This document shows positions 1 to 3,623 of a DNA stretch of 62,566 nt, one piece after another. Below the pieces are notes generated by a model. It was not told the origin of the DNA, did no database searches, and saw nothing but the letters and a program-made list of their open reading frames with translations. The stretch comes from Thermodesulfobacteriota bacterium. GTDB taxonomy: Bacteria > Desulfobacterota > Binatia > UTPRO1. The translations under genes and the position numbers were made by a program. Where the stretch lies: positions 1 to 62,566 of the forward strand of contig DAIQBH010000006.1 of NCBI GenBank assembly GCA_036781285.1, in the 5' to 3' direction. The stretch's first letter is position 1, and the number at the start of each line of letters is the position of its first letter.

Positions 1-331
1 GGTACGTACCGGCGCCGTGCCAGGCCATCCGGATGAAGAACGGTCCGTAGTTCCCATAGTCGGCCGGCCACCAATCCTGCGAGGTCGTCAGGACCTTCTC
101 GATGTCCCGCTTGACGGCCTCGAGGTCGAGCTGCGCGAACGCCTCGGCGTAGTCGAAGTCTTTTCCCAGCGGGTTGGACTCGGTCGCGTGCTGCCGGAGC
201 GGCGACAGGTCGAGTTGGTCGGGCCACCAGAACTGGTTCGTTCGCGGCGCATCGGCGGCGCCGACCGCAGCCGTCGGCATCGCCAGCAGCACCGCGAACA
301 CGACTCGCAACATGGTCGTCGTTTTCTGCAT
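1..331 (-). CDS. katG: Catalase-peroxidase, N-terminal part (runs off the window), with a predicted signal peptide
   Basis: Manual translation [48 protein letters not shown]...[27 protein letters not shown] contains the hallmark KatG motifs. An AAGGAG RBS lies upstream. Absent from the ORF track. Confidence 0.95.
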
Positions 332-351
332 CGAGGTCTCCTTGAGAGGTG

Positions 352-867
352 TCATGGGCGGAAGCGATCGCGATCGCCGAGCGTCGCGAAATCCCGGTAC
401 CCGAGAAAGAGCAGCGGGTGTCCACTCGCCGGACGGCGGACGCGATGGACGTGCGTGACGTCGAAGACGAACGGGACGTGGTCTCCGAGCGGGTGCTCGA
501 TCTCGTTCGCCAGCGTGAGCTCGAAGGCCGCGTCGGCGCCCTCGATCACGACGGTGTCGCGGAGGGTTTCCGACGTCCGGGTGTGAAAGCCCAGACGATC
601 GGTCTTGCGGGTCCGCCGACCACTGACGTACCCGGCGCGGATGACGGACGCGCGACGGTCGAAGGGCAGGAAATGGAGCACCGCCTCGCGATGCTCACGG
701 ATGAGGTCGAGGCTGTGGTTCTTGCGGTCGATCGCCAGGAGGAAGCGGAACGGCTCTTTCGAGACCGGCGTCCACCACGCGATCGGCATCACGTTGGTCG
801 CCACCGCGAGCAAGCCGAGATGCATGGGGTAGAAGCCCGAGAAGTAGCGGGCGCCGTGCGCCGTCAT
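352..867 (-). CDS. Flavin reductase-like (FMN-binding split barrel) protein
   Basis: C-terminal 171 aa of ORF 352..1764: [39 protein letters not shown]. The ATG overlaps the upstream stop (ATGA). Confidence 0.8.
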
Positions 868-1898
868 CCGGTGACTCGATGGCCCCGGCTGCCTACGTCG
901 ACGGCGACGAGGCGCTCGCAGAGGGACCAGAGCGCGGCGCGCTCCTCGGCGGTTTCCCGGGTGAAGGGCACGACATGGGTGCGCCGCGGCTCGCGATCGA
1001 GAAAGAAGCGCCCGGAGTAGTCGCGGCCGCGGGTACTCGCCGCCAGCCACACGATCGTATCGGCCCCCTCGGCCGGGGTGCGGAGGAAGGGCCGCGTCAG
1101 TCGATGGAAGCCGGGGAGCGAGGTGCGGACGCCGGGGGTGTCGGCCCATCCCGGATGCATGGCGTTGACGACGACGGCGCTGGAGGCGAGCTCCTCCGCG
1201 AAGAGCTCGGCCAGGACGACCTGCGCGCGCTTCGTTTCGGCATAGGCCCTGACGCCGTCGTAGGGGCGCGTGCGCCAATCGACGTCGCCGAGAGCGAGTC
1301 GCTGGGTGTACATGCCGCCCGAGGAGACCCAGATGACCCGGCCGTCGGCGGACGCCGCGAGCGCGTCGCGCAGCAGCCGGGTGAGGAGGAACGGACCGAC
1401 GACGTGGGTGGCGAACGTGAGCTCGAGCCCGTCGGCCGTCTCGATGCGGGCGGCCGGCAGGAGGCCCGCGTTGTGGATGAGCACGTCCACCGGCGCCGCG
1501 CGCAGACGCGCCGCCGCCGATCGCACCGCCGCCAGCGACGAGACGTCGAGCACGTCGGCCGACACGCCGGGGTTGCCGGTCGCGGCACGCATCGCGGCGG
1601 CCGCGGCGTTCCCGCGCTCCGCGTTCCGGCAGAGCAGGACGACCGTCGCCCCGAGGCGGGCGAGCGCGAGCGCGGCCTCGTAGCCGAGGCCCGAGTTGCC
1701 GCCGGTCACGAGACAGCGCCGTCCCGTCAGATCGACGCGGAGATCGTCGGGATCGAAGGTCCACGCGTGGATGCGGAAGCCCGGGCGCGCGAAGGACAGC
1801 GCGATCGTTGGATCGACGATCGCACCGAGGGCGCGGCCGAGCAGGCGCTGCGCGTCGCGGGCGCGCTCGGTCACGAAGTCCGCGAGCCCGGTGCTCAC
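864..1898 (-). CDS. Short-chain dehydrogenase/reductase (DHRS12/retinol dehydrogenase-like)
   Basis: TGGNSGLG, HNAG, YAETK (YxxxK), MHPGWADTPG. GTG start inferred from a GTGA overlap with the upstream stop. Confidence 0.88.
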   Translation of the reverse strand: MSTGLADFVTERARDAQRLLGRALGAIVDPTIALSFARPGFRIHAWTFDPDDLRVDLTGRRCLVTGGNSGLGYEAALALARLGATVVLLCRNAERGNAAAAAMRAATGNPGVSADVLDVSSLAAVRSAAARLRAAPVDVLIHNAGLLPAARIETADGLELTFATHVVGPFLLTRLLRDALAASADGRVIWVSSGGMYTQRLALGDVDWRTRPYDGVRAYAETKRAQVVLAELFAEELASSAVVVNAMHPGWADTPGVRTSLPGFHRLTRPFLRTPAEGADTIVWLAASTRGRDYSGRFFLDREPRRTHVVPFTRETAEERAALWSLCERLVAVDVGSRGHRVTG

Positions 1899-2644
1899 GC
1901 CGAGGCTCGCGTGCGGACGGTCGCGAGCCCGCCGTCGACCCCGAGGATCTGCCCCGTCAGCCAGCTCTGGGCCGGATCGAGCAACCAGGCGAGCGCCGAG
2001 GCCACCTCCTCGGGTTCCCCCACGCGCCCGAGGGGGTGCATGGCGCTCGAGGTCTTGAGCGCGGCCGCGCTGGCCGTGAGGCGCGCCGTGAGCGGCGTGC
2101 GCACCAGGCCCGGGGCGACACAGTTCACGCGAATGCCGTGGGAGGCATACGATGCCGCGGCCGCGAGCATCAGCCCCGTGACTCCGGCTTTGGCGGCGGC
2201 GATGGCCTCGTGGTTCGCGAGGCCGACGCGCGCGGCGGCGGAGGACACCAAGGCGATCGACCCTCCGTGACCCATCATCGCGCGCGCCGCGGCGCGCACC
2301 GTCGCGAAGGCGGAGGTCAGATTGGTTGCGAGCACGGCATTCCATTCTTCCAGCGTCGTGAGATGCGCCGGCTTCAGCAGCAGCGAGCCGACGCAATTGG
2401 CGACGCCGTCGATGCCCCCGTGGCGCTCCACCCCGACCTGCACGCACCGCTCCACGGCCGCGAGGTCGGTCGCCTCGAAGCGCTGCGGGGTCGCGCCGGT
2501 CTCCGCGGCGAGCGCCGCGAGACGATCGCCGTCACGGCCCGCGATGACGAGCCGCGCCCCGCTCGCGGCGAGCCGGCGCGCGAGCGCGGAGCCGATCCCG
2601 CCCGTGGCGCCGAGAATGACGTAGCTCGGAGGCGACTGGCTCAT
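1895..2644 (-). CDS. Classical SDR oxidoreductase (FabG/pteridine reductase-like)
   Basis: GATGGIG, VSS, VNCVAPGLVRT, TGQILGVDGG. The usual YxxxK reads HEAIAAAK, with Ile in place of Tyr. Confidence 0.88.
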   Translation of the reverse strand: MSQSPPSYVILGATGGIGSALARRLAASGARLVIAGRDGDRLAALAAETGATPQRFEATDLAAVERCVQVGVERHGGIDGVANCVGSLLLKPAHLTTLEEWNAVLATNLTSAFATVRAAARAMMGHGGSIALVSSAAARVGLANHEAIAAAKAGVTGLMLAAAASYASHGIRVNCVAPGLVRTPLTARLTASAAALKTSSAMHPLGRVGEPEEVASALAWLLDPAQSWLTGQILGVDGGLATVRTRASA

Positions 2645-2648
2645 GCCG

Positions 2649-3290
2649 TCATCGGCTCCGCAGCGATTCGATCGCGAGCGCGCGGATGCCGTGGTCGGTG
2701 GCGAGCACCCCGCGCACCGCCGTCGTGACCATGTCGGCGCCGTGCTTGGCGACGCCCCGCATCCGCATGCACATGTGCTCGCCCTGCACGACCGCGGCCG
2801 CCCCTCGCGCGCCCGCCTCCGCCATCAACGCGTCGGCGATTTCTGCGCAGAGCCGCTCCTGGATCTGCGGCCGGCGCGCGTAGTCGTCGACCATGCGGGC
2901 GATCTTGCTGAGCCCCACCACCTCGCCGTTCCCGGGCAGATAGGCGACGTGGGCGCGACCGGTGAAGGGCAGCAGGTGGTGCTCGCACATGCTGAAGATC
3001 TCGATGTCGCGCACCATCACGAGGTCGTCGGCTCCGCCCTCATGGGCAAAGGTCCGTGTCAGGTGCCGCATCGGGTTTTCGTGGAGCCCGGAAAAGATCT
3101 CGCGGTAGGCGCGCGCCACGCGTTGCGGCGTGTCGGCGAGACCGTCGCGGTCGGGATCCTCGCCGAGCCCGAGGAGCAGCTCCCGTACGGCATGCGCGAT
3201 CCGCGCCTCGTCGAATGGGCGGCGCTGCGGGCCGGGGGCTCCGGCGCGGATGTCCTCGAGCTTGGTGGCGACGTTCATCGATGGCGTCAT
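2649..3290 (-). CDS. folE: GTP cyclohydrolase I
   Basis: [49 protein letters not shown]. Start at 3290 fits the GAGG spacing; 3296 is an alternative. Confidence 0.96.
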
Positions 3291-3339
3291 CGTCATCCTC
3301 GTGTCTGGCGTCGTTCGAGCGTGGTGGGGATCCAGTCGG

Positions 3340-3377
3340 GGTGGTGGCTCTTCGTCGATCCGCGACGAGCCACCACC
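3340..3377. other. GC-rich intergenic hairpin between DUF378 and folE (possible mRNA stabiliser)
   Basis: GGTGGTGGCTC (3340-3350) pairs with GAGCCACCACC (3367-3377). No U-tract follows. Confidence 0.45.
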
Positions 3378-3398
3378 GAGCTCTCGCGTGGCTGGGAC

Positions 3399-3623
3399 TC
3401 AGGCAGGACCGACGTCCACCCCCCACCGCTCCTGGATGCGGCGCAGGTTGACGACCTGGTAGAGTGCCGCCGACCCCACGGCGACGTAGGCGAGCCGAGT
3501 GAATGCCCCGGCGTCTCCGCCGAGAAGCCCCGCGATGGGGTTGAGTCCGAGGAGGCCGACGAGGCCCCAGTTGATCCCGCCGATCACGACCAGAACCGCG
3601 GCGCTGACATCGAGTGTTCTCAC
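3399..3623 (-). CDS. DUF378 small membrane protein
   Basis: VLVVIGGINWGLVGL...RLAYVAVGSAALY is the DUF378 pattern. GTG start follows a GAAGGGAG RBS. Confidence 0.85.
   Translation of the reverse strand: MRTLDVSAAVLVVIGGINWGLVGLLGLNPIAGLLGGDAGAFTRLAYVAVGSAALYQVVNLRRIQERWGVDVGPA

Follow-up and report, generated by a model that had tools for sequence, protein, structure and literature searches.

The 62,566 nt stretch analysed here (the window; contig DAIQBH010000006.1, or C6, of assembly GCA_036781285.1, a Thermodesulfobacteriota bacterium of the GTDB class Binatia) begins with six co-oriented genes that diverge from the gene of a CarH/LitR-like regulator. They probably form most of a modular operon of about eight genes that protects against photo-oxidative stress and is repressed by this regulator. 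Its members would be DUF378, folE, two genes for short-chain dehydrogenases/reductases (SDR1 and SDR2), a gene for a flavin mononucleotide (FMN) protein of the flavin-reductase-like family (FlaR), katG, and, on an adjoining contig, genes for an ABC1 kinase and an SRPBCC-epimerase-DUF1731 protein. Comparison across genomes indicates that the conserved partner of the regulator is an accessory folE paralogue, and that the remaining operon genes are interchangeable, lineage-variable cargo. The minus strand of positions 1-3900 was read and gene identities were taken from Pfam and NCBIfam scans, giving the following features.

3788-4693, plus strand: CarH/LitR-like regulator, with a MerR helix-turn-helix (HTH_17, 34.5 bits) and a B12-binding fold (32.1 bits, exactly at the cut-off).
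3801-3820, minus strand: a second, degenerate pair of repeats (GGCCGTTTTGGATGTTTTGG) that lies within the opening codons of the regulator gene and recurs in other loci.
3672-3700, minus strand: promoter-like TTGACA-17-TATCCA, read from the sequence; the -35 TTGAC(A) is kept in most of the compared loci.
3646-3663, minus strand: operator O1, two copies of the 9-bp TGAACGTTT in perfect direct tandem, located after the -10 box and before the ribosome-binding site, found by sequence comparison.
3399-3623, minus strand: DUF378, which opens the operon and encodes a small membrane protein (PF04070, 58.9 bits).
2649-3296, minus strand: folE, GTP cyclohydrolase I type IA (PF01227, 229 bits; TIGR00063, 202 bits against a cut-off of 181.6; NF006826, 255 against 162).
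1895-2644, minus strand: SDR1, a FabG-like SDR with Ile at the position of the catalytic Tyr (motif NHEAIAAAK).
864-1898, minus strand: SDR2, a retinol-dehydrogenase (RDH)/LPOR-like classical SDR (PRK06197-type, E 3e-47) with intact YxxxK.
352-867, minus strand: FlaR, an FMN-binding split-barrel protein (PF01613, 65.7 bits against a cut-off of 27).
1-331, minus strand: 5' part of katG, catalase-peroxidase, cut by the contig start (NF011635, E 1.2e-41, residues 27-110).

The six co-oriented genes and their junctions are as the initial annotation had described them. Read 5' to 3', a 102-bp spacer separates DUF378 from folE and a 4-bp gap separates folE from SDR1; the start of SDR2 then overlaps the SDR1 stop (GTGA), the SDR2 stop overlaps the FlaR start (ATGA), and katG follows after 20 bp. 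DUF378 starts at a GTG preceded by a GAAGGGAG Shine-Dalgarno sequence, and the equivalent codon is ATG in the near relative L101, where DUF378 occupies the same position with 93% identity; the gene is also found close to a second regulator copy in L137 and close to SDR1 and an amine oxidase gene in L168. The NCBIfam scan returned no family for either DUF378 or FlaR. The FolE translation contains the active-site motifs CEHH and HMCM, and CEHH...HxC, following the established E. coli FolE numbering, we take to be the zinc and catalytic Cys/His motifs of the enzyme.

O1 reads TGAACGTTTTGAACGTTT at 3663-3646, downstream of TTGACA-17-TATCCA and upstream of DUF378. The perfect 18-mer occurs once in the 6.17-Mb assembly (95.6% complete), where the next best site has 3 mismatches. 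All ten regulator-folE loci that were compared carry two to four tandem 9-bp TGAACGTTT units between the -10 box and the ribosome-binding site, and when up to 3 mismatches were allowed in the search across loci, the motif was found in 13 of the 20 Binatia regulator loci. Outside Binatia, too, it accompanies regulator homologues, in Rhodothermia (L185, a perfect match), Rhodothermales (L188), Bacteroidota (L215) and Pirellulales (L162); the positions are L185:6567-6593, L225:6240 and 6426, L162:2816, L188:7136 and L215:7155, and outside Binatia the operator always adjoins a regulator homologue wherever one was detected. Of the FlaR loci, only the regulator-bearing L100 and L101 have it, and it was not found in the 77 FlaR loci lacking a regulator match (46 from species genomes, covering 607 kb, and 31 from metagenomes). 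The promoter call is based on conservation across loci; a strict sigma-70 consensus scanner missed it, since T is lacking at position 6 of the -10 box. Direct repression of the operon by the divergent regulator through the TGAACGTTT repeats is a prediction well supported by this comparison.

CarH operators are reportedly built of direct repeats with an 11-bp period lying over the promoter; the repeats found here share the direct orientation and the overlap with the promoter, with a period of 9 bp instead. In one genome (G156) the operator stands upstream of an SDR2-SRPBCC_Epi gene pair (L095:10680-10697, G156:C50) and the regulator is on another contig, so the regulon there should have at least two promoters. 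The degenerate second pair at 3801-3820 recurs in L100, L101, L135, L142, L145, L148 and L149, with 3 mismatches to the consensus in the L101 copy, and is possibly an autoregulatory site.

The regulator is present as a single copy in the window genome and has a homologue in 20 of 201 Binatia genomes. In the alignment with Thermus thermophilus CarH, GERHEIG stands opposite GDPYLLP, and the cobalt-ligand His (His177 of the Thermus protein) is replaced by Tyr in the regulator and in five homologues; the W...EH motif is retained.

A divergent folE adjoins the regulator in seven of the 20 Binatia regulator loci, as well as in L100 and L101, near relatives that both come from one metagenome. All seven Binatia genomes with a regulator-linked folE have a second folE elsewhere, and two genomes in which the regulator does not adjoin folE have a single folE each. 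The window genome has two: the operon copy is not its only folE, and the other, on C51, shares 44% identity with it. In a phylogenetic tree the ten regulator-linked FolE copies form one clade (support 96/93), apart from the other copies of the same genomes. The slot behind folE, on the other hand, is variable. It is occupied by a photolyase and a CMAS-type (CFA-synthase-like) methyltransferase in L142, by an AhpC/TSA peroxiredoxin followed by DUF2867 in L148, and by a fatty-acid desaturase in L135, and DUF2867 lies beside the regulator in five other regulator loci, four of which also have SRPBCC_Epi. Since the partners of folE are exchangeable across loci, the stable unit is the regulator plus accessory folE. 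The genes seen in this slot in sister loci (photolyase, CFA-synthase-like methyltransferase and peroxiredoxin) also lend comparative support to the photo- or oxidative-protection role that the initial annotation had proposed. Conservation of gene order was found in part: the full order recurs in one near relative, with differences, and nowhere else. This is L101, which reads regulator, then divergently DUF378-folE-(70-aa open reading frame)-SDR1-SDR2-NAD-binding/DUF2867-amine oxidase-FlaR-ABC1-SRPBCC_Epi; in L100 the regulator faces folE-amine oxidase-FlaR, and SDR genes are absent.

Some smaller features of these loci may be recorded. The open reading frame between folE and SDR1 in L101 (L101:2828-3040) has 70 codons, a coding-like GC content at third codon positions and no Pfam match, and the window has the 4-bp gap at that point. 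An open reading frame of about 130 residues, also without a Pfam match, is located between the regulator and folE in L145:854-1240(-), L149:691-1095(-) and L142:~10500-10900(+); it carries the motif EVDRISEGMI... and fills the slot that DUF378 holds in the window. G131, which belongs to the same genus as the window genome and is 82% complete, encodes an SDR2 orthologue (55% identity) and carries folE in three copies, and the regulator query gave no homologue in it.

The two SDRs differ in their active sites. SDR1 lacks the classical YxxxK: alignment places an Ile at the position of the Tyr of BacC and 1ULS (HEAIAAAK), and the motif NHEAIAAAK is invariant in four orthologues of 63-88% identity, whereas SDR2 retains YAETK. 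The nearest relatives of SDR1 are FabG-like PDB chains (1e-33), a protein atlas offers only generic SDR names for it, and its family extends to at least 558 loci, including Planctomycetota, Acidobacteriota, Gemmatimonadota, Bacteroidota and Verrucomicrobiota. Among the 80 best SDR1 loci, SRPBCC_Epi is a neighbour in 12, the regulator and DUF2867 in 10 each, amine oxidase in 9, folE in 4 and photolyase in 2, and SDR1 and FolE are adjacent in Rhodothermia L185. SDR2 has an N-terminal extension of roughly 55 residues and matches PDB 3RD5 (E 2e-24; 3RD5/LPOR-type chains at ~1e-24). About 17 of 201 Binatia genomes encode an SDR2 orthologue, and folE was found in none of the 18 Binatia loci retrieved; genomes G182 and G087 entered that search tally only through matches to a distant SDR paralogue. 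The initial annotation had pointed to SDRs of the FolM/PTR1 type, which reduce pterins, and both enzymes were compared with FolM. SDR1 aligns with E. coli FolM at 24% identity over 139 residues (E 8e-6) and SDR2 at E 0.014, neither showing FolM/PTR1-specific kinship, and no pteridine reductase is among the best 25 NCBIfam or the best 60 PDB matches. By these sequence comparisons, the similarity of SDR1 and SDR2 to E. coli FolM does not exceed that of SDRs in general.

The AlphaFold2 model of FlaR (pLDDT 77) gave flavoredoxin-like FMN proteins as its best Foldseek matches (3ZOE, 3ZOC and 1USF, E ~5e-11), with template-modelling scores of 0.65-0.71 to the FMN-binding proteins 3ZOE, 2R6V and 1USF, and on this basis FlaR is predicted to be a flavoredoxin-like FMN split barrel. 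The family holds 43-68% identity from Binatia to Thermus and Chloroflexota. Within 8 kb of FlaR orthologues, folE, SDR1, katG and the regulator were found in none of 46 species genomes. Thermaceae and Myxococcales show linkage of FlaR with DUF2867, and in several lineages a Rossmann-type oxidoreductase, whose identity differs between lineages, lies directly 5' of it. All-against-all clustering of the open reading frames around SDR2 and FlaR detected lineage-specific partners and no universal one.

The window starts at the end of a contig, so the operon is truncated in it: katG, the N-terminus of which has a signal-peptide-like leader, runs off the start of C6 after its first 110 codons. Elsewhere in the genome, peroxidase-family matches are found only at the very end of contig C100, where what is most probably the rest of the gene lies at C100:18121-20052(-), with two PF00141 peroxidase domains within C100:18205-20052. 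If the contigs are joined as proposed, the protein has both the N-terminal NF011635 signature and the two peroxidase domains of the KatG class. Window positions 1-75 and C100:19998-20072 overlap inside katG by ~74 bp with ~4 mismatches (counted by eye). After katG, on the same strand of C100, come an ABC1 kinase gene (91% identity to that of L101) and an SRPBCC-epimerase-DUF1731 gene (88%). The join is probable because this order matches the FlaR-ABC1-SRPBCC_Epi order of the near relatives L099 and L101, and because those two have no katG at that position, katG is apparently an insertion specific to the window genome. The end of C100 encodes YVDYRP where the window has the canonical YGNYGP; the difference probably reflects strain variation, or else an error at the contig end that interrupted the assembly.

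Families related to folate, pterins and photoprotection were searched genome-wide. Matches were found to FolP (C47), HPPK (FolK; C107), photolyase (C169), PTPS (C259) and phytoene-synthase-like proteins (C91 and C13), all on other contigs, so for these families the earlier observation that the window has no other folate, photolyase or carotenoid genes holds. No match to the FolB/FolX family (PF02152) was detected in the assembly, which is 95.6% complete and encodes two FolE copies as well as FolK and FolP; the only PTPS-family gene, on C259, might be of the PTPS-III type and take the place of FolB, or it might be QueD. A photolyase had been sought beyond katG, and none was found there on C100; the only one in the genome, on C169, has unrelated genes as neighbours. 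Placing it under the same operator was considered and dropped, because no further operator site with 2 or fewer mismatches exists in the genome.

Two light-responsive systems resemble the locus, which by gene content appears to be the same kind of cluster as the light/oxidative-stress clusters of Pseudomonas and Thermus, in a new lineage and with different cargo. In P. mendocina, a light-induced folM-folE-folX operon lies beside the class II LitR gene pmlR2, and in P. putida 19 light-induced, PplR-dependent genes include folE, phrB, ufaM, cryB and genes of unknown function; the Pseudomonas LitR classes that lack the His mediate light responses through partner LOV proteins (PMC9758184). As with PmlR2 and PplR, the window has a MerR-type regulator of the LitR/CarH family adjoining a polycistronic operon with folE and an SDR. 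The class II LitR regulon likewise includes a short-chain dehydrogenase, a flavin adenine dinucleotide (FAD) oxidoreductase and genes of unknown function, and its regulator is without a working B12 site. However, the Pseudomonas SDR is FolM, with FolX present and a tetrahydromonapterin route, whereas the window operon has neither FolX nor FolM to accompany FolE, and its SDR1 lacks the catalytic Tyr. The FMN protein, KatG, ABC1 kinase and SRPBCC-YfcH cargo also sets it apart, as do the 9-bp direct-repeat operator and the full B12-binding-like Rossmann domain of the regulator, where class II LitR has only the helix bundle.

On the T. thermophilus HB27 plasmid pTT27 (L132, 44809-48821), a run of DUF2867, SDR, FlaR, YceI and UvsE genes is situated 3 kb from ldrP-carH and the divergent crtB-phr. 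The FlaR orthologue is 55% identical to that of the window, and the NAD-binding/DUF2867 protein, which follows a short SDR, is 48% identical to the L101 copy. As is proposed for the window operon, the cluster is a photoprotection island with unknown oxidoreductases, and as far as PMC5401885 relays Takano 2014, genes of this region are light-induced and activated by LdrP. In contrast to the Tyr-bearing regulator of the window, the Thermus protein is a true AdoB12 CarH with His177, acting through the activator LdrP, and folE is absent from the 28 kb of pTT27 inspected.

Taken with the comparative evidence, the arrangement suggests how the operon may work. Transcription would start from TTGACA-17-TATCCA, and the regulator, bound to the tandem TGAACGTTT just downstream of the -10 box, would repress it until its signal, most likely light, relieved the repression. 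With the accessory FolE, more GTP would then be converted to dihydroneopterin triphosphate and passed on to folate and pterin, probably so that photolyase receives its methenyl-tetrahydrofolate antenna and folate destroyed by light is replaced; since FolK and FolP are present, a folate route that the extra FolE activity can feed exists. The Ile-for-Tyr SDR, RDH-like SDR, flavoredoxin-like FMN protein, ABC1 kinase and SRPBCC-YfcH protein would probably deal with lipid, quinone or carbonyl damage products and not with pterins, and the exported KatG, inserted in this lineage, would remove periplasmic peroxide. The gene anatomy, the conservation of the operator, the folE paralogy and the modular synteny are observed; light as the signal, and every substrate named here, we infer.

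Several points weigh against this interpretation. The cobalt-ligand His is missing, so the regulator may not be a B12 photoreceptor at all, and light induction is argued from homology and gene neighbourhood. The 4-bp coupling of folE to SDR1, together with their adjacency in Rhodothermia L185, may mean that these two genes are functionally linked. The only photolyase of the genome is not at the operon locus, which has the sole operator site at the threshold of 2 mismatches, and the overlap supporting the C6-C100 join is imperfect, with synteny as the other argument for it.

The missing His is the starting point for an unlikely explanation that nonetheless deserves a hearing, namely that the regulator senses redox state or a small ligand and that the operon, through KatG, the reductases and folE, responds without light to stress from peroxide or carbonyls. 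The His to Tyr change extends through the regulator subfamily, the cargo slot can hold peroxide enzymes (KatG in the window, AhpC/TSA in L148), and photolyase is encoded elsewhere in the window genome, all of which would fit. However, the retained W...EH belongs to the cobalamin-capping helix bundle, homologous regulators directly adjoin photolyase and CFA-synthase-like genes (L142; L143, L214), the cargo modules are those of the Thermus carH-ldrP-phr region, and loss of the His is compatible with light responses in Pseudomonas, where LOV partners are used (PMC9758184). That the operon folE simply feeds tetrahydrofolate synthesis beside unrelated neighbours has next to no likelihood, even with FolK and FolP in the genome, and the initial annotation was right to set housekeeping folate supply aside: the second folE on C51 is of the common clade, the operon copy belongs to the regulator-linked one (96/93) and stands behind a conserved repressor operator that is unique in the genome, and no folate gene lies nearby.

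The same annotation had favoured a dedicated pterin-redox pathway. In such a pathway, FolE would supply dihydroneopterin triphosphate, one or both SDRs would reduce the ring or the side chain of the pterin in the manner of FolM, PTR1 or sepiapterin reductase, and the flavin reductase would recycle oxidised pterin, the product being a reduced-pterin antioxidant or chromophore. Translational coupling from folE through SDR1 and SDR2 to FlaR speaks for it, as do the retention of this order in L101, the SDR1-FolE adjacency in an unrelated phylum (L185) and the pterin-reducing SDR of the light-induced P. mendocina folM-folE-folX operon (PMC9758184). We nevertheless consider it quite improbable. FlaR and SDR2 have orthologues at 46 and 18 loci, respectively, without folE, and folE is near SDR1 in only four of its best 80 loci; the near relative L100 couples folE to an amine oxidase gene and FlaR with no SDR, and other regulator-folE operons have photolyase, peroxiredoxin or desaturase instead. 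E. coli FolM is a much more distant relative of both SDRs than FabG-like or RDH/LPOR-like enzymes are, SDR1 has Ile for its catalytic Tyr, and the operon contains neither PTPS nor FolX, the sole PTPS match being that on C259 and the FolB/FolX family having no match in the genome. More speculative still, and very improbable, is the idea that FolE and the FMN protein work with both SDRs, the Ile-for-Tyr and the RDH-like one, to make an undescribed reduced or modified pterin. Such a compound would protect against light stress as an antioxidant, or else the His-less CarH-like regulator would use it as chromophore or ligand; if true, this would account for folE alone keeping its place beside this regulator family.

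A photo-oxidative-stress operon of this kind would not surprise a specialist. It would add the uncultured Binatia, a phylum-level lineage, to the bacteria in which a CarH/LitR-type regulator turns on protective genes, and it would give independent genomic support to a part in light/oxidative-stress responses for the uncharacterised Ile-SDR, the flavoredoxin-like FMN protein, DUF2867 and SRPBCC-YfcH, which are genes of unknown function in published LitR regulons. Since T. thermophilus HB27 (TT_RS10380-10400) and Adhaeretor mobilis HG15A2 (L196), which are genetically tractable or cultured, carry the same modules, the chemistry can be tested.

The DUF378-folE spacer contains a perfect 11-bp inverted repeat (GGTGGTGGCTC...GAGCCACCACC; 3340-3377, minus strand, read from the sequence), but its fold z-score is only -1.13 against shuffles. 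In L101 the spacer is nearly nil and the inverted repeat is not present, and it is probably not functional. An Rfam scan of positions 1-4800 gave no matches, including to the tetrahydrofolate and folE riboswitches. In an alphaproteobacterial group (L012, L114, L115, L117 and L118) with no regulator match, FlaR adjoins a nitronate monooxygenase gene. An endonuclease/exonuclease/phosphatase-family gene is also found there in L012, L114 and L117, and in L114 an Ile-SDR gene comes right after FlaR.

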